Shown: positions 21,501 through 27,500 of the stretch, one piece after another | Numbering within the stretch: the first letter of the stretch is position 1 | How the letters are laid out: the number at the start of each line of letters is the position of its first letter | Source of the DNA: Escherichia coli | Lineage (GTDB): Bacteria; Pseudomonadota; Gammaproteobacteria; Enterobacterales; Enterobacteriaceae | DNA length: 64,000 nucleotides | NCBI RefSeq assembly: GCF_017348835.2 | Contig: NZ_CP071375.1 | Strand: one strand, 5' to 3' | Position numbers: made by a program

Positions 21501-24500
21501 TCGTCACTCAGGACGTGAAATGATGAAAGAGAAAAAAACATCTCTCAACAATAATGTGAACCGCCCCGGAAATCCTGGAGACTAAACTCCCTGAGAAAGA
21601 GGTAAACAGGATGACTAAAAATACTCGTTTTTCCCCCGAAGTCCGTCAGCGGGCGATTCGTATGGTTCTGGAAAGTCAGGATGAATATGACTCACAGTGG
21701 GCGGCAATTTGTTCCATTGCCCCAAAGATTGGCTGTACGCCGGAGACTCTGCGTGTCTGGGTTCGCCAGCATGAGCGGGATACCGGGAGTGGTGATGGTG
21801 GACTCACCACCGCTGAACGTCAGCGTCTGAAAGAGCTGGAACGTGAAAATCGTGAACTGCGCCGCAGTAACGATATCCTTCGCCAGGCTTCCGCTTATTT
21901 TGCGAAGGCGGAGTTCGACCGCCTCTGGAAAAAATAATGCCACTGCTGGATAAGCTGCGTGAGCAGTACGGGGTCGGACCGGTATGCAGCGAACTGCATA
22001 TTGCCCCGTCAACGTATTACCATTGTCAGCAACAGCGACATCATCCGGATAAACGCAGTGCCCGTGCGCAGCACGATGACTGGCTGAAGAAAGAGATACA
22101 GCGCGTATACGATGAAAATCACCAGGTATACGGTGTGCGTAAAGTCTGGCGTCAGTTGTTACGGGAAGGTATCAGAGTGGCCAGATGCACTGTGGCACGT
22201 CTCATGGCAGTTATGGGACTTGCCGGTGTTCTCCGGGGTAAAAAGGTCCGCACTACCGTCAGCCGGAAAGCCGTTGCCGCATGCGACCGCGTAAACCGTC
22301 AGTTCGTGGCAGAACATCCAGACCAGTTGTGGGTGGCTGATTTTACCTGGGTAAGCACATGGCAGGGCTTCGTTTATGTGGCGTTCATCATTGATGTGTT
22401 CGCCGGATACATCGTGGGATGGCAGGTCTCATCATCCATGGAAACAACATTCGTGCTGGATGCACTGGAGCAGGCGTTGTGGGCCCGTCGGCCGTCCGGC
22501 ACAATCCATCACAGTGATAAAGGTTCTCAGTATGTATCGCTGGCCTACACGCAGCGGCTTAAGGAAGCCGGATTACTGGCATCAACAGGGAGTACTGGCG
22601 ACTCGTATGACAACGCGATGGCGGAGAGCATCAATGGTCTTTACAAAGCGGAGGTAATACACCGTAAGAGCTGGAAAAACCGTGCAGAAGTGGAACTGGC
22701 CACACTCACGTGGGTGGACTGGTATAACAATCGACGATTGCTGGAAAGGCTGGGCCATATTCCTCCGGCAGAAGCAGAAAAAGCTTATTATGCTTCCATC
22801 GGAAATAATGATCTGGCAGCCTGAGTTCACAGATAAAACACTCTCCAGGAAACCCGGGGCGGTTCACTCCGCTACACGGGTAGCGATCTTTGAACGATCC
22901 GCAATAGTTTTAAACCCACCGCCGCCCTGCCTTGCCAGCGTGACGAGCTGCTTACTTAATTTAGACATATCTGTCCTCCTTCACTAAGAAATACAGATCA
23001 AGATCTTCTCCCAAAATAAGGAAACGAGCACGATCTGTATTCTGGATTTTCACACAGAACTGATACATCTGGCCCCGACGGTACGGTTAGGTTTTGCGCT
23101 TCCTGCGTCTCGACTGATATCTGTGCATCGGGGTGACAATATGTTGAGTTTTTACGAGGTTCCCCAGCTCGCAGAGCTGTTCGCGGCGTATGCCGTCCTG
23201 ACGTTAGTCAGACTACCTCCATACGTCAGCTTTCACTGACATTGCCATCGATACCGAGTCGAATTTTCTCCTGAAGTTGATACGTCTGCTCTCATGGTTT
23301 CTCCGTGAATGGATGCGTTCCGTGATAAGACGTTATGGTTAAAAAGTGTGCTTAAAGATGCTATTTCCCCAGTCTGAACACCGTGACTACGTGTGCGTCA
23401 GACTGTACAGAGTGCTGAAAGACCGCATTCCGTCTGCTAAGACGGTGCCCTTTCGCGCAGCGTCACTTGGTATCGCTAACGCGCTTACACAAGTGACGCT
23501 GCACATATCCCGCCGCCAAATGCTGCCCTTGCAGATGCCAAATGTTCCAATTGGCATAGCAACGTGCCGCAAATGTTACCGGGATAAGCTGGACGTAAAT
23601 CCATAGAAAACAGCTTTAAGGATGTCGGGCAAACGTTGTTGCCCTGCGTTGAAGTGTACCTTTATCGCGTTTGCGATCACCGTTCTCAAAGGTTAAACGG
23701 TGTTATCGCCCGAAGGCTTCGTCTCTCAGATTACGACGATTTTGGCTGCGGCCACCCGAAGGCATCAGTCTCAGGCCGCGCTTCTTTCCCTATGATATTG
23801 GCTTGCGATCACCCGAAGGCGCTTCTCTCAAATCGCTGGCACAGTTCCGCTTGCGCTGAAGCATTGGCTGTTGTCGGAGACAACGGTGTAACGCTCGGAG
23901 AATAAAACTTTCTATGAGATCTTTCAATATATTGCTTTAATTTTCAGCATCTATTAATCTCGATTTATAGCGACATTGATAGGGAAATATTAATGGAAGG
24001 CGTAATAAAATGGTTCAGTGAAGAGAAAGGGTACGGATTCATCACTGCCGCGAATAATATAGATTACTATTTTCATGTCAGTGATATAAAAGGCTCATTG
24101 CTTCCTGAAAAGGGGCAAAATGCTCATTTTAATGCAGAATCGACATCTAAGGGCCATAGGGCAAAAAACATTACTCTTACAAAGAGTAATATTGCATCAG
24201 ATAATCGTCTGGATTTTTGCAAAAACTGTAATAAAAAAATCATTCCAAGAATGATTACCCACAGGGGTGAACCACAAAAAACCGTTTGCCCTTACTGTGC
24301 AACAGTAATAAAGAATTTCGATGAGAATTTTTTGTTGAAATTATCACAACCATATTTTATTTTTTCACTTACATGTCAAAAATGCTCTTTGTTTTTATCA
24401 TATGGATATTTAAGACCATAACCACCAAAAGGAAATAACATGCCTGACAAAATTAAACTTGAGATATTTTCAATTGAATACAGGAAAACTATTTTTGATT

Positions 24501-27500
24501 TATATAAAGATACATTTGTTTGCATAGCTATCGCTGTATTAGGAGTTTACTTAATTAAAAATGACTATCAATTTGTTGGATGGTCAACTTATATTATTGC
24601 TGGTGCATTATCTATACTGGCATCGACCACCACCATTAAAATGATTGGAGACAAACGAAAGTCAGAGGAAACAAGTAACTCAGGATTCTTGCTGTTGTTA
24701 TTCTTCAGCCTGTTTTCGATAATAATTCTAGTTGCTGGTTTAGTTAAGGGGGTAAAGGATGTTATGTAAATATCAAAAAAGGAGTATGCTTAATGAACAA
24801 TAATAATAAATCATCTAGCCAAGCAGACTTCTGGACAGTTTTGTTTAACGGAGTAACAGAGATCGTAAAAATGATCTTTTCTATAATCATAGCTATTGTT
24901 GTTGCCGGAAGCAAAACCCCCAGTACATCAGCCGAAGATAAAACATTACATACAGGTTATCGGCATAATAACGACAAATCTGTACATTTTGACAATGATG
25001 CTTAACCTAATAAATATCCTCCGGCATAGCCGGAGGTTTTTCAAATGCGCCTATAAGGCTCTCTTACCAGCCGCGCCCTAACAGGCGCACACGATCTGAC
25101 ATTTGCATCCAACTTCGTTACTTACGGCCCGTAAACGGGCTGCCCGGATAGGGAATCGATAACTGCTCTCCCATTTTATCCTCTTCAAGCTGGTGCTTTA
25201 TGTAATCCTGTATCTTCGCCGTGTTCTTACCCACTGTATCGACGTAGTACCCTCTGCACCAGAACTCCCTGTTCCTGTATTTGAATTTCAAATCACCAAA
25301 CTGCTCGTAAAGCATCAGACTGCTTTTCCCTTTCAGATATCCCATAAAGCCGGATACGCTCATTTTGGGCGGGATCTCCACAAGCATATGGATATGATCT
25401 GCACAGCATTCAGCTTCCAGAATCCGTACACTTTTCCACTCACACAGCTTTCTCAAAATACTGCCTATTGCTCTACGCTTCTCTCTGTAGAACACCTGTC
25501 TTCGGTATTTTGGCGCAAAAACTATGCGATATTTACAGTTCCATCGGGTGTGCGCTAAGCTCTTTTCGTTCCCCATTGGGACCCCCTTTTGATTTCTTGT
25601 TTGACACTTGCAGTTGCCAGACCGCAAGGTGTTTTAACAAATCAAAAGGGGTTTTAATAACTGGCTCAAAGCTGAAAGCTTTCCGCAACCCCCAGCCTAG
25701 CTGGGGGTTTTCTGTGCACAAAAAAATAGGCAGTGAAACAGAACCCACTGCCTATCTCATAAAGTTAACCTTTCCCTTTAGATGCCCCTTTCGTTGCTAC
25801 TGTTTTAACGACCTCGCCAGCAACTCCTGGTCCTTTAGCTCCAGCCTGCTGCGATCCTTTGCTGGCATTATCAACTGCCGAAGATAATGCTCCACCGATT
25901 TGAACACCGCTCCAGCTCACAGCACCAAACCAGAACATCGGCAGCACCACATACATCGCCCCCAACACCAGATTCATGATCCAACCATCAGAGCCAGAAC
26001 TCGCAAGCCAATTATTGAAACTGTTGATGTATCCTCGATAACTGGCATATAAAAGCTGGATAAGTTTGTCATCCAGCCAGCCCCCAGTTCCCACCAAAAC
26101 GGAACAAAAATTATCGCAAACATCGCAAATGTAATAGTGACTACTACCTTTGGATCATACGCGCCAAACAACATCACCAGCGGAATGCATATCACTATAG
26201 CCATCAGTAAAATAGCATGAACCATAGGCAACGCCTGTCGAAGTGCATCAAACGCCGGTAACTGCGTCGCTTGCGCACTAAAAGCACCCAGGCCGCTTAG
26301 GAATTCTTTAATACCGGTGTCAATACCCGTTCCATGTCCTTGTTGATTCCCTATCATATAGGTATCACCACCTCCGGACATATGTATATTCTGTGGACTT
26401 ACCAACCAGCGAAGAAGGCTTTCCTCCCAATTATTCGGAGATTTCGCCTTCATCATATTGACTGTACGTTTATCAAAACTATCCAATAAACGACTTTTCA
26501 GCCCCTTCCCTGACGCGCTCCACCAGTCTTTGCACGTCGGATAATCGCCATCAAGCAGGAGAGTTTTGAGACCGGCATCGGCACATAAGCCTGCCAGGTT
26601 GGCAGATTTAGTAGACTTACCTTCACCGCCTTTGGTAGAAATTACTGAAATTACATGCATATAAGTCACCTGTATATGATTTACAGGTAACAAACGTTCT
26701 ATACGTGTTTAAATCAGGGATTGAAAATCCCCGTGTCCTTGGTTCGATTCCGAGTCCGGCACCAAATTCATATCAACGGACCTCCATGGAGGTCCGTTTT
26801 TCATTTCAGAGCTTTATTCTTCAGTGTCAACGTCATTGCCCGAATGTCATCGCGGGTATCCCCCAGTCAGACAGTGTTTGTGCCCTCTTTAACGTATACA
26901 GAGGGCTAACCTATGGCACTGACCGGCGCAGAAATCCAGGCAACAAAGCTCACAGACAAGGCTGATTCCACCCTATCCTGTCCAGAGCGAACTTCACGGA
27001 GCTGAAAAATTCAGAGGGCATATATAATGGATTAATGATATTGCCAAAGAGTATTATAGATTAGAACATCCCCACTGGTTTGCTTAGATAACTCGAATAT
27101 ATCTCTTAATAACAGAGCGTCATTACTTAAAGATATTTTTGTTTCCGATGTGTTTAAATCTGCACGTGAGCTACTTTTTGGTCTTAAAGTCAATTCGAAA
27201 GAACCATAGGACCATATAAATTTTAGAGTACATTTATTTCCTTTTACATTAGAGAATATTTTCACTTCCTCAGATGTATCTGTAAAACTTGATACATTAA
27301 TAGTCTCGGGGTTCCTGTTATCATTATTTAAGAAAATAAGATGAGACGGTTGTTTTACTCCATTGAAATAGTAGTGACACCCTCCTTCTCCAAAAACATG
27401 TGATGATTTCCCTGAAGATATATAAAACTCCGCCCCCGGATTAGTTACTTTGTATATAAACATGTCTTGGGAAGAAACAACTCTATAATTACCAAAGTCA

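Follow-up and report, generated by a model that had tools for sequence, protein, structure and literature searches.

The three small genes P1, P2 and P3 in the window, a stretch of 64,000 nucleotides of Escherichia coli contig NZ_CP071375.1, constitute a real, conserved and uncharacterised operon of a PAPI-1/ICEEc2-type conjugative island, and the copy found here is partly decayed. The locus was shown to be an accessory operon of a PAPI-1/ICEclc-type (MPF-G, ICEEc2/ICEKp2-like) ICE at tRNA-Phe, of which a decayed remnant is left in this strain. From the anatomy of the gene products and from their neighbourhood we infer that the operon may act in recipients as a barrier against single-stranded nucleic acid entering the cell, beside a candidate entry-exclusion protein, a tentative reading with a probability of about 0.35-0.4.

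Operon layout and island setting

An earlier note on this DNA had described an AT-rich cassette of three same-strand ORFs, each with a Shine-Dalgarno sequence, and this layout was borne out. The ORF coordinates match (Table 1) and the gaps are 18 nt (P1/P2) and 23 nt (P2/P3). AGGGA, AAGGAA and AGGAG, read in the sequence, lie 6-9 nt 5' of the P1, P2 and P3 ATGs, and the G+C content of the cassette is 31-37% versus ~48-50% in the flanks. The spacing between operon genes is 1-23 nt in all variants. Purifying selection acts on all three genes, with dN/dS values of 0.07 for P1, 0.18 for P2 and 0.20 for P3. The region upstream of the operon retains a mean identity of ~90% across ~140 nt in 7 ICEs from 6 genera, whereas the coding sequences of the same ICEs diverge by up to 40%. 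We can only infer a promoter role for the upstream segment listed in Table 1, because a simple sigma-70 scan gave no strong site on its + strand. The cassette has undergone mosaic recombination and diverges faster than the T4SS backbone. A sliding-window comparison with LF82/MS1170 gave 80-90% identity for the recombinant block, compared with 97-100% for the remaining cassette, and dS is 0.28 in P2 versus 0.015 in P1 residues 1-113.

Table 1 Features of the operon and its surroundings in the window.
Feature	Coordinates	Strand	Basis or remark
tRNA-Phe, attachment site of the ICE remnant	17433-17508	+	ARAGORN
IS3-family element upstream of the cassette	21611-22824		
EFASI	23111-23262	-	Rfam, 86.1 bits (gathering 51.2)
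STAXI motif	23699-23885	-	Rfam, 77.2 bits (gathering 40.5)
Conserved upstream region, candidate promoter/leader and Shine-Dalgarno	23886-23992	+	cross-ICE identity
P1 ORF	23993-24421	+	142 aa
P1 cold-shock domain, residues 1-62	23993-24178	+	Pfam CSD
P1 Cys4 zinc ribbon, C76-C102	24218-24298	+	homologue conservation
Recombinant block, P1 tail and first two thirds of P2	24303-24661	+	sliding-window identity
Ancestral reading frame of the P1 tail, still open	24331-24438	+	translation of the old frame
P2 ORF	24440-24769	+	109 aa
P3 ORF	24793-25005	+	70 aa
IS200C, inserted in the A-run that directly follows the P3 stop codon	25003-25719	-	megablast; tnpA annotation
Native bidirectional hairpin, common to P3 and traG	25729-25754	.	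sequence
traG remnant (TraG_N family, VirB6-like)	25765-26693	-	ORFs; RefSeq annotation of the identical PE164 locus

The cassette sits at a tRNA-linked site between two IS elements, as had been proposed, with the IS3-family element upstream and IS200C downstream. An integrase and a TraI_2 relaxase directly follow tRNA-Phe in PE164, MS1170 and LF82. STAXI and EFASI mark the Integrase_1/antirestriction side of the slot, and intact ICEs are arranged alike. The cassette occupies the same place, with the Integrase_1/STAXI/antirestriction block on one side and traG on the other, in all close homologues examined, namely those of E. coli, Salmonella, the E. albertii type, Raoultella, K. oxytoca, Phytobacter and the ICEKp2-like element of K. 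pneumoniae. The genes co-occur well beyond this strain, as a unit found also in E. coli LF82, NRG857C, MS1170 and MS1266, Salmonella, Enterobacter and others, but P2 can be absent or fused to a CSD: sister ICEs carry P1, P2 and P3, P1 and P3, P3 with a CSD-P2 fusion, or only P3. Placed between P3 and its upstream region and co-oriented with P3, P1 and P2 form an accessory add-on. No phage was found with more than a bare CSD.

Decay in this copy affects P1, whose anchor was lost to a frameshift, P3, which is cut off from its native terminator, and traG, which is truncated. The strong terminator formerly ascribed to the cassette (hairpin 25018-25036) is the end hairpin of IS200C and not an operon part. 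In more than 2000 E. coli genomes megablast matched IS200C, from window position 25002/25003 to ~25720, and the element contains an Rfam STnc490 match at 25586-25709. The native hairpin, AGGCAGTG-N10-CACTGCCT, lies directly 3' of P3 in LF82 and MS1170 and is now separated from it by IS200C; in Raoultella and Y. ruckeri it carries compensatory changes.

P1 and P2 would bring a cold-shock domain to the membrane

The CspA-like N-terminus expected for P1 was recovered by Pfam (CSD, residues 1-62, E 3.9e-13), and the fold is backed by AF2/Foldseek. For the Cys4 zinc ribbon, C76, C79, C99 and C102 are invariant or nearly so among 32 homologues, as are the RNP-type aromatic and basic residues, whereas Pfam zinc-ribbon models match weakly (DZR E 0.03). 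Relatives of P1 have 148 aa and a C-terminal membrane helix that is gone from the protein in the window. Nucleotide alignment with LF82 and MS1170 identifies a frameshift allele, in which the loss of 1 nt near 24335 (~24334-24336), after a T6 run, swaps out the hydrophobic C-terminal helix of the family. The frameshift and the lost helix had been missed in the earlier note. The allele is real, because the exact frameshifted sequence is present on 35 contigs; intact 148-aa forms are far commoner. The old frame encodes FVEIITTIFYFFTYMSKMLFVFIIWIFKTITTKRK, ending in a stop 1 nt before the P2 ATG and similar to the tails of homologues P0009, P0011 and P0014. The AF2 model of intact LF82 P1 (pLDDT 82) comprises a β-barrel (residues 1-63), zinc-ribbon strands (86-108) and a long helix (111-147), so modelled P1 would normally be tail-anchored, with the CSD in the cytoplasm, then the Cys4 zinc ribbon and finally the membrane helix. 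The best 150 clusters with a P1-type zinc ribbon include 60 of CSD, zinc ribbon and one TM helix and 19 of CSD, zinc ribbon and CFI-box. Some members of the wider CSD-zinc ribbon-TM family sit in ordinary chromosomal contexts.

P1 shares its OB-fold and conserved RNP1/RNP2-type residues with the CspA/CspC/CspE chaperones and the replication inhibitor CspD (Foldseek TM-score, target-length-normalised, ~0.85; identity 35-41%). Unlike them, it is ICE-encoded and has an extra Cys4 zinc ribbon and membrane anchor. Eukaryotic Lin28, with a CSD and CCHC zinc knuckles, offers a similar two-part single-strand binding design. However, homology is confined to the CSD, the zinc module of P1 is a ribbon where Lin28 has knuckles, and a membrane anchor is missing from Lin28; Foldseek placed it at ranks 37 and 49 with a long but poor alignment (rmsd 10-13 Å). 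CFI-box-CTERM proteins (NF041770) have the CSD and zinc ribbon (PRMITYRGEPQK knuckle) in common with P1 at 35-45% identity, and plasmids of Burkholderia and others carry them close to leading-region genes. They end in a CFI-box domain, whereas the P1 family ends in a single hydrophobic helix, and P1 gave no match to NF041770.

That the other two genes encode short hydrophobic proteins was confirmed. P2 has three hydrophobic helices in the KD profile, placed by AF2 at residues 12-40, 44-74 and 80-108, and a conserved N-terminal motif, YRKxIFDLYKDTF, on the cytoplasmic side. Among the 18 P2 homologue clusters, 4 are CSD-P2 fusions of 168-171 aa, the form in which sister ICEs join the CSD directly to P2, and a P1 and P3 variant exists without P2. 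The fusions together with the predicted tail anchor of P1 thus suggest a constant design, with the CSD held at the cytoplasmic membrane face.

P3 is a backbone gene convergent on traG

P3 is single-pass, with one hydrophobic helix (KD profile) and an acidic C-terminal tail, here of type A (...HTGYRHNNDKSVHFDNDA). It forms 34 homologue clusters, and its exact sequence is on 308 contigs. The cassette is not the free-standing three-gene unit previously supposed: P3 occurs without P1 and P2 in Yersinia ruckeri, Erwinia, Serratia and Y. similis and belongs to the backbone of the ICE family, always convergent on the traG stop. A convergent small hydrophobic ORF lies ≤120 nt from the traG stop in 34 of 45 ICE loci surveyed (24-91% TraG identity), compared with 13/281 control gene ends (4.6%); beyond Enterobacterales the kinship to P3 is positional and motif-level, where homology is not statistically demonstrable.

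The C-terminal ~45 aa of TraG vary in step with the P3 tail type, irrespective of overall TraG phylogeny, a pattern confounded by adjacency, as a single recombination tract could yield it. TraG of locus L064, for example, is 97% identical to LF82 TraG and differs mostly in the tail. The traG remnant in the window keeps an intact C-terminal tail with the 'SSAVD' motif, which accompanies type-A P3 in the tail alignment. The presence of P1 and P2 is independent of the P3 tail type.

Function of the operon

In the proposed mechanism the operon would act on the recipient side, at the site of DNA entry/exit. P3 may pair with the C-terminal tail of TraG in the manner of an entry-exclusion factor, as Eex and TraS do with TraG, while the membrane-tethered CSD-zinc ribbon of P1, alone or docked to P2, would bind single-stranded nucleic acid emerging at the membrane. 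Possible targets are the T-strand of a related element in competition with the ICE and the genome of an ssDNA/ssRNA phage that depends on pili, and binding would hinder establishment with no need for cell killing. Like Eex of the SXT/R391 ICEs and TraS of the F plasmid, P3 is a small inner-membrane protein beside traG, transcribed independently of the transfer operon, and the variable P3 tail changes together with a short stretch of TraG (PMC11493245, PMC5812530). Known exclusion factor genes adjoin their traG target (PMC11493245), and PAPI-1 has an exclusion index of about 298 with no determinant identified (PMC5297154). Also in keeping with this reading, the neighbours of more distant, plasmid-borne P1 homologues include traG, relaxase, ssb, Lar antirestriction and integrase-domain genes. 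Unlike the established pairs, candidate P3 gave no sequence match to any named family, and MPF-G TraG consists of the ~500-aa TraG_N/VirB6-like part only, without the long C-terminal domain that bears exclusion specificity in F and SXT TraG. The lack of this domain, the untied occurrence of P1/P2 and P3 tail types and the partly chromosomal wider family are points against a barrier. CSDs also discriminate little between sequences, in a cytoplasm that is full of RNA, and no known exclusion system includes a protein that, like P1, binds nucleic acid.

Defence cargo of the abortive-infection or toxin type is a less likely but live explanation, in which the CSD-zinc ribbon would sense foreign nucleic acid and small membrane proteins (the P1 helix, P2 and possibly P3) would permeabilise the inner membrane. 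The slot adjoining traG is a hotspot of defence/TA cargo in the PAPI-1 family, which favours this explanation: GI-Hotspot 2 of PAPI-1/PAGI-5 (TraG to helicase), immediately beyond traG and bounded by the next backbone gene, holds 21% defence and 13% TA (PMC12629846). In our survey, genes of the Abi_2-like, type I RM, VapBC and ATPase kinds fill this slot in other ICEs. The cassette itself is rich in AT, mosaic and quick to evolve, the CSD-P2 fusion puts a sensor-plus-TM-effector layout in a single polypeptide, and one distant P1 homologue adjoins GmrSD/Z1/DUF4420 genes. Unlike GI-Hotspot 2 cargo, however, the slot here holds a lineage-specific operon joined to a traG-convergent backbone gene, and the text of that study does not contain 'cold shock' (PMC12629846). 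Close homologues were found in this ICE slot only, always sharing an operon with P3, and never in prophages or other islands, whereas mobile defence cargo is usually scattered more widely. P3 is ruled out as a dedicated effector, because it is present in ICEs without P1 and P2, and a CSD is a poor specific sensor. Nothing points specifically to the abortive-infection or toxin layout proposed in the earlier note. That the note recognised no named system was upheld by searches of PADLOC, NCBIfam, PHROGs and Pfam, in which P2 and P3 likewise have no family. Retron type V (Se72) employs a CSD effector, like P1 a stand-alone CSD in a mobile/defence context, and P1 matches PADLOC CSD_V with an E value of 2e-12 and NF038236 with 40 bits. 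The score falls short of the curated cutoff (82 bits) and does not exceed that of the CspE match, so the similarity is weak and generic to CSDs. Se72 effectors are soluble CSDs of ~62 aa with neither zinc ribbon nor membrane anchor, and no reverse transcriptase or msr/msd was found near P1 loci.

More doubtful is an establishment, anti-defence or RNA-handling factor, a membrane-bound CSD serving as single-strand DNA/RNA chaperone rather than against incoming nucleic acid, which might shield or process the T-strand of its own element, work on the structured STAXI/EFASI region or localise membrane-protein mRNAs. CSDs are established nucleic-acid chaperones. P1 lies ~110 nt from the STAXI motif, which may act as ssDNA according to Rfam (PMC12370729). 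Plasmid homologues stand among hallmark leading-region genes: in Burkholderia the neighbours are ssb, Lar restriction alleviation, an orphan N6 methylase, a toprim primase and an integrase-domain protein, in Thioalkalivibrio ssb is near, and in Shewanella a tyrosine recombinase and a MobH relaxase. However, the antirestriction/ArdC/Integrase_1 block and the operon are read in opposite directions in the ICE, so that the operon would not be expressed from the same incoming strand, sister ICEs with a like STAXI/EFASI arrangement have no P1/P2, cold-shock proteins go unmentioned in the leading-region survey paper, and the membrane anchoring and operon link to P3 are left unexplained. An ordinary cold-shock paralogue as adaptive cargo, followed by two unrelated small ORFs, would fit the RefSeq name 'cold shock domain-containing protein' and the 'predicted cold shock protein' listed among ICEKp2 cargo (PMC6761156) but is very improbable and largely refuted by P1 architecture, since P1 scores 38-42 bits on CspA/C/E models against equivalog cutoffs of 120-137 bits, conserves a zinc ribbon and membrane anchor absent from any housekeeping Csp, and is tied by gene fusion to conserved P2 and P3 under purifying selection.

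The strict tie of the operon to one ICE slot and to a traG-adjacent gene means that a function at the conjugation interface is at least as strongly indicated as defence cargo. [quoted passage not shown]

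Results

Anatomy of the operon and the origin of its terminator

The open reading frames for the three cassette proteins, P1, P2 and P3, lie on one strand with gaps of 18 nt (P1–P2) and 23 nt (P2–P3), and a Shine-Dalgarno-like purine-rich motif precedes each of them. The G+C content of the cassette is 31–37%, compared with ~48–50% on both flanks. The AT-rich three-gene anatomy reported in the earlier note is thus real by ORF calls, sequence and base composition. All three genes are under purifying selection (dN/dS 0.07–0.20), and the upstream region of the operon is highly conserved and common to the P1/P2 and P3 transcription unit. 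The tRNA-linked setting between two insertion sequences was also recovered, with an IS3-family element upstream, IS200C downstream and tRNA-Phe as the tRNA gene. However, the strong terminator at 25018–25036 that had been assigned to the cassette is not its own. This hairpin sits within IS200C, an element with thousands of E. coli copies, and is the terminal hairpin of that element, which mimics an intrinsic terminator of the operon. IS200C entered the A-run that separates the P3 stop codon from the native P3/traG hairpin. The native hairpin (AGGCAGTG-N10-CACTGCCT) is located directly 3' of the P3 gene in E. coli LF82 and MS1170, Raoultella and Y. ruckeri, carries compensatory changes between genera, and is common to P3 and the convergent traG; in the window it is found on the far side of IS200C.

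Features of the operon, its host element and compared loci. Positions refer to the window unless a compared locus (L-number) is named.
Feature	Position	Strand	Basis or remark
naRNA4 (REP-derived)	5443-5513, 51134-51204		core genome
tRNA-Phe	17433-17508		
Cys-rich 289-aa protein	20181-21050	-	
74-aa hypothetical protein	21060-21284	-	
EFASI motif	23111-23262	-	RNA/ssDNA motif (Rfam)
STAXI motif	23699-23885	-	RNA/ssDNA motif (Rfam)
P1 ORF, 142 aa	23993-24421	+	ORF call
Recombinant block	24303-24661		
P2 ORF, 109 aa	24440-24769	+	ORF call
P3 ORF, 70 aa	24793-25005	+	ORF call
IS200C	~25003 to 25720		megablast, window 24995-25720
IS200C terminal hairpin	25018-25036		
Native P3/traG hairpin	25729-25754		
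traG 3' end segment	25765-25900	-	TraG tail comparison
Glycosyltransferase ORF, 2,978 aa	27032-35968	-	
tRNA with CAT anticodon	38732-38807		core genome
Sib antitoxin RNAs	59124-59273, 59500-59649		core genome
FMN riboswitch	63116-63264		core genome
Two STAXI copies and one EFASI	L003 9966-10121, 11212-11363, 11800-11986		intact ICE
traG 3' end segments	L003 13155-13290; L064 6151-6290		TraG tail comparison
ORF called across STAXI	L062 6365-6913		
Second variable slot	L002 18025-18855; L003 17944-19692; L004 13606-15354; L007 13213-16219; L066 12889-14331; L068 12764-13732		
Non-conjugative P1-family members	L081 7026-7505; L079 538-996		

P1 combines a cold-shock domain with a putative zinc ribbon

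The CspA-like fold proposed for P1 was confirmed by a match to the Pfam cold-shock domain (CSD, PF00313) that covers residues 1–62, of 66 model positions, with an E value of 3.9e-13. CspB and CspE are the top Foldseek matches of the P1 model, with a TM-score (normalised to target length) of ~0.85. The fold search returned CSD structures only; Lin28, the sole parallel to the design of CSD plus zinc module, is a parallel by analogy, and its structural alignments were poor. Among 32 homologues, W7, F8, K12, G13, Y14 and G15 are invariant, and conservation is at least 90% at F16, Y26, F27 and V29. These residues correspond to the nucleic-acid-binding surface, comprising RNP1 (K-G-[FY]-G-F-I) and RNP2-type aromatic/His residues. 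As for the proposed Cys4 zinc-ribbon tail, the cysteines hold up, with both CxxC pairs (C76/C79 and C99/C102) invariant or nearly so in the same homologues and ribbon strands predicted by AF2 at residues 86–108, whereas the matches to Pfam zinc-ribbon models are weak (E 0.03–2). Judged by sequence, P1 is a CSD superfamily member with a putative zinc ribbon.

Against the NCBIfam equivalogs CspA/C/E/D, whose cutoffs are 115–152 bits, the best P1 score is 42.3 bits (CspE, cutoff 120). The match to PADLOC CSD_V of retron-Se72 (E 2e-12) is comparable to the generic CspE match. A retron type V/Se72 effector was rejected, with NF038236 scoring 40 bits, below its cutoff of 82, and with neither a reverse transcriptase (RT) nor msr; no RT is annotated within 12 kb in the cassette-bearing strains PE164, MS1170 and LF82, and no retron RNA occurs among the Rfam matches. 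The CFI-box-CTERM model NF041770 (cutoff 40 bits) matches neither the window P1 nor the intact E. albertii-type homologue P0022, and scores 76–89 bits with the distant homologues P0030, P0034, P0037 and P0038. P1 is therefore not among the Csp equivalogs, the retron-Se72 effectors or the CFI-box family.

The P1 gene of the window is a frameshift allele: 1 nt is missing near 24335, behind a T6 run, and the final ~35 residues are replaced as a result. Members of ~25 homologue clusters are 148–151 aa long and carry a C-terminal hydrophobic helix, with KRK/KKK after it. The AlphaFold model of intact LF82 P1 (pLDDT 82) comprises the CSD barrel, the zinc-ribbon hairpin and one long helix, residues 111–147. 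The ancestral frame is still open in the window and encodes a hydrophobic tail that ends 1 nt short of the P2 start codon. Since 35 contigs from many assemblies carry exactly this 142-aa sequence, the allele is genuine and a sequencing error is ruled out; intact alleles occur on several hundred contigs. Programmed -1 frameshifting at the T6 run was considered, as the old frame is open to the same stop, and was left without support. To our knowledge, U UUU UUG is no established slippery site. The frameshift is located at the left boundary of a recombinant block with 80–90% identity, against 97–100% around it. Its extent coincides with the P1 membrane tail plus the first two P2 helices (two thirds of P2), which suggests that the P1 tail and P2 were swapped as one unit.

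P2 and the arrangements of the operon

P2 is modelled by AF2 with helices at residues 12–40, 44–74 and 80–108, and three hydrophobic helices are also obtained from hydropathy. P3 contains one hydrophobic segment at residues ~15–45, and an inner-membrane location is predicted for it from hydropathy. The earlier description of both as short hydrophobic proteins is thereby upheld. For P2 and P3 there is no NCBIfam or PADLOC match and only weak PHROG matches (E > 0.003), and no Pfam domain is recorded for any of their homologues. P1 matches the generic CSD only. The cassette thus matches no named system in these databases; the earlier note had recognised none.

Where present, the P1 and P2 genes are upstream of P3, in the same orientation and with gaps of 1–23 nt. 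P1, P2 and P3 occur together in E. coli and in Salmonella, whose P3 is present though uncalled, and hence co-occur outside this strain. In the E. albertii type, P1 and P3 occur without P2, and in Raoultella, K. oxytoca and Phytobacter the CSD is fused directly to P2 and followed by P3. P3 alone is the fourth arrangement among sister ICEs. P1 and P2 are an accessory add-on to P3, dispensable for the ICE; they diverge faster than the type IV secretion system (T4SS) backbone and recombine in blocks. Because the CSD is fused directly to P2 in sister ICEs, the N-terminus of P2 is predicted to be cytoplasmic, and P2 appears able to replace the zinc ribbon and helix of P1 as an anchor. The common denominator of the variants is a CSD with intact nucleic-acid-binding residues, predicted to be held against the inner membrane on its cytoplasmic side.

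P3 is a backbone gene that converges on traG

In intact ICEs the P3 gene converges on traG, with the stop codons 35–50 nt apart. P3 alone, also converging on traG, is found in Y. ruckeri. We surveyed 50 traG loci taken from species-representative genomes (45 of them usable) and recovered P3 homologues without P1/P2 in Erwinia and Serratia. The usable loci come from Enterobacterales, Photorhabdus, Pasteurellaceae, Pseudomonas, Nitrococcus and beta-proteobacteria and span 24–91% TraG identity. In 34 of these 45 the traG stop is faced by a convergent small ORF that encodes a hydrophobic segment and lies no more than 120 nt away, in most cases no more than 50 nt; the frequency at 281 other long-ORF ends in the same loci is 4.6%. 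P3 is an ICE backbone gene. In many of the traG-convergent small proteins the C-terminal tail is acidic and contains a motif resembling G-[YF]-R-x-G-x-x-G-x-G-[YFW]-Y. Iterated HMM searches over the fetched loci did not extend P3 homology beyond the enterobacterial group, and the family-wide claim is therefore positional and at the level of the motif. Ten divergent P3-like proteins gave no NCBIfam match, and no curated family covers them. A convergent small ORF also abuts the traG homologue in related ICEs, for example, at loci L031 and L036.

The last ~45 residues of TraG track the type of P3 C-terminal tail (A or B) regardless of TraG relatedness, an association that adjacency confounds and that linkage alone could explain. 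A TraG tail with the motif SSAVD accompanies type-A P3 in E. coli, Phytobacter, Erwinia and Y. ruckeri. The E. albertii-type TraG (locus L064) is 97% identical to LF82 TraG with the differences concentrated in the tail, and its P3 is of type B. The TraG end and P3 behave as a swappable module, such that near-identical TraGs with differing P3 types differ almost only there.

The host element and its remnant in the window

With positions 23900–25100 as the query, the window is 100% identical to E. coli PE164. The cassette is present in only 6 of 5,426 complete E. coli genomes (PE164, MS1170, MS1266, two assemblies of LF82, and NRG857C). In LF82 and MS1170 it resides inside an intact integrative conjugative element (ICE) at tRNA-Phe. 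These ICEs encode a tyrosine recombinase, a TraI_2 relaxase, ArdC and antirestriction genes, an Integrase_1-type gene, and a T4SS with TraG_N, TraU, TIGR03756/03757/03751/03752/03749 and PFL_4703 proteins. The complete marker set, comprising the tRNA-adjacent recombinase, TraI_2 and the TraG_N/TraU/TIGR03756-03757/TraC-type T4SS, is found in LF82, MS1170, Raoultella and others. The host element is an ICE of the PAPI-1/ICEclc (MPF-G) family, of which ICEEc2 and ICEKp2 are members (PMC6761156, PMC11537424). The cassette slot is constant, with the Integrase_1 gene and the STAXI/EFASI motifs (Rfam) on one side and the traG 3' end on the other. The ICE of the window is a remnant in which only the integrase, TraI, part of traG and the P1-P2-P3 operon survive; its Integrase_1 gene is disrupted by IS3, and traG is truncated.

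Several neighbouring features were recorded. STAXI and EFASI fill the ~1-kb 'intergenic' stretch upstream of P1, and in intact ICEs two STAXI copies flank the Integrase_1 gene and are accompanied by one EFASI. ORFs of 89–182 aa called across STAXI in some assemblies are probably spurious. In the window, a TcdA/TcdB catalytic glycosyltransferase ORF (LifA/Efa1-like large toxin, G+C ~31%) occupies the place of the ICE T4SS genes, beside the traG remnant. The Cys-rich and 74-aa proteins that follow the TraI_2 relaxase are without annotation; both are conserved in position among the ICEs of LF82, MS1170 and Raoultella. The ICE family has another variable slot, flanked by the DUF1525/TIGR03757 gene and the TraC-side genes, which is the equivalent of GI-Hotspot 3 of PAPI-1 (PMC12629846). 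Its cargo is a defence-type gene that differs in almost all of the sister ICEs (dCTP deaminase, Abi, Abi_C, AAA_15/21 ATPase, or S8 peptidase with AAA). The core-genome RNAs listed in the table lie outside the island.

The wider P1 family

Searching 1.84 billion representative proteins with a profile of only the zinc ribbon retrieved 349 clusters (50% identity). Among the best 150 of these, 60 combine a CSD, a zinc ribbon and one TM helix, 19 combine a CSD, a zinc ribbon and CFI-box-CTERM (NF041770), and 22 combine a CSD and a zinc ribbon but have no strongly hydrophobic tail. Clustered at 50% identity, the CSD-zinc-ribbon membrane architecture makes up at least 100 clusters, and conjugative elements carry it repeatedly. 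A homologue from a K. pneumoniae ICEKp2-like element occupies the same ICE slot and is probably the 'predicted cold shock protein' of the ICEKp2 cargo (PMC6761156). P1-family genes are located two genes after an F-type traG in Methylobacter, beside a tyrosine recombinase and MobH relaxase in Shewanella, beside ssb in Thioalkalivibrio, and in Burkholderia beside Lar restriction alleviation, an integrase-domain gene, DUF1173, PRTRC, toprim and ssb. Elsewhere the neighbourhoods are ordinary chromosomal ones or tell little, one of them on a contig too short to be informative, and the architecture may have a more general membrane-associated role. Two CSD-zinc-ribbon-TM members (loci L081 and L079) are not linked to a conjugative element; one, on a chromosomal contig, is flanked by a response regulator and a hybrid histidine kinase, and the other follows a DnaB_C fragment. 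In 50,697 phage records, tblastn found no phage that carries more than a bare CSD, and these were in Gram-positive phages, so that a prophage or lysis function is ruled out.

Discussion

The reading we favour, with a probability of roughly 35–40%, is that the operon is a recipient-side barrier at the DNA-entry site, because P3 has exclusion-like traits and P1/P2 would add a single-strand module at the site of nucleic-acid entry. P3 would be an entry-exclusion-type factor acting with the TraG tail. P1 and P2 would share its function through the common transcription unit and upstream region, placing a single-strand-binding module at the point of entry of T-strands and of pilus-dependent ssDNA/ssRNA phage genomes. 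The eex and traS products are small inner-membrane proteins whose genes adjoin that of their target, traG (PMC11493245, PMC5812530). The operon is similar to these Eex/TraS-TraG systems in where its gene lies and in the kind of protein encoded, without any sequence in common, and a nucleic-acid-binding component such as P1 has no known precedent there. PAPI-1 has an exclusion index of ~298 without an assigned determinant (PMC5297154). The gene set of an ICEclc T4SS study begins at the traG homologue, orf53587, whose deletion was the only one not complementable in trans; the convergent ORF was not treated (PMC10018362). Our literature search found no cold-shock-domain protein tied to conjugation, exclusion or defence in the PAPI-1/ICEclc ICE family, and no treatment of the CSD-zinc-ribbon-membrane architecture or of the traG-convergent small gene. 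A bolder joint proposal is a long shot: that the P3 family is the missing exclusion determinant of PAPI-1/ICEclc/ICEEc2-type elements and, in addition, that tail-anchored P1, whether alone, P2-docked or P2-fused, is a new barrier that captures single-stranded nucleic acid at the inner membrane and blocks rival T-strands or pilus-dependent ssDNA/ssRNA phages without killing the cell.

In PAPI-1 islands the slot itself is a documented hotspot for defence and toxin-antitoxin genes (GI-Hotspot 2, TraG to helicase; PMC12629846), and the surveyed ICEs carry Abi-, RM- and TA-type genes there, as would suit an abortive-infection or toxin module of the kind suggested in the earlier note, here read as defence cargo made of a sensor and pore-forming proteins. 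Such a module is the main rival but less likely than the recipient-side barrier, as P1, P2 and P3 match no defence or toxin family (NCBIfam, PADLOC, PHROG), a CSD is ill suited to specific sensing, P3 also occurs in ICEs that lack P1/P2, and close homologues were never seen outside the single ICE slot. A role in establishment or as a nucleic-acid chaperone, to which the plasmid neighbourhoods of the P1 family and the adjacent STAXI motif point, is less probable still; the operon is transcribed in the opposite direction, and sister ICEs with the same STAXI/EFASI layout are without P1/P2. An ordinary cold-shock paralogue is effectively excluded by 42 bits against cutoffs of 115 or more and by the architecture.

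We class the operon as a putative ICE-encoded membrane barrier or conflict module, and its family is real, widespread and mis-annotated. Because the copy in this strain is degenerate, the locus in the window is a pointer to the family and not a working system. Few conjugative islands of Proteobacteria are as widespread as the PAPI-1/ICEclc-type ICEs, which spread virulence, catabolic and resistance genes. For exclusion of the PAPI-1 type, the small gene abutting traG provides a concrete candidate. The annotation 'cold shock protein' misleads whether P1/P2 form a barrier or a membrane-pore Abi system. The latter would add a new sensor-effector type; if the P1 architecture instead intercepts incoming single strands, it would represent a new principle for exclusion or defence.
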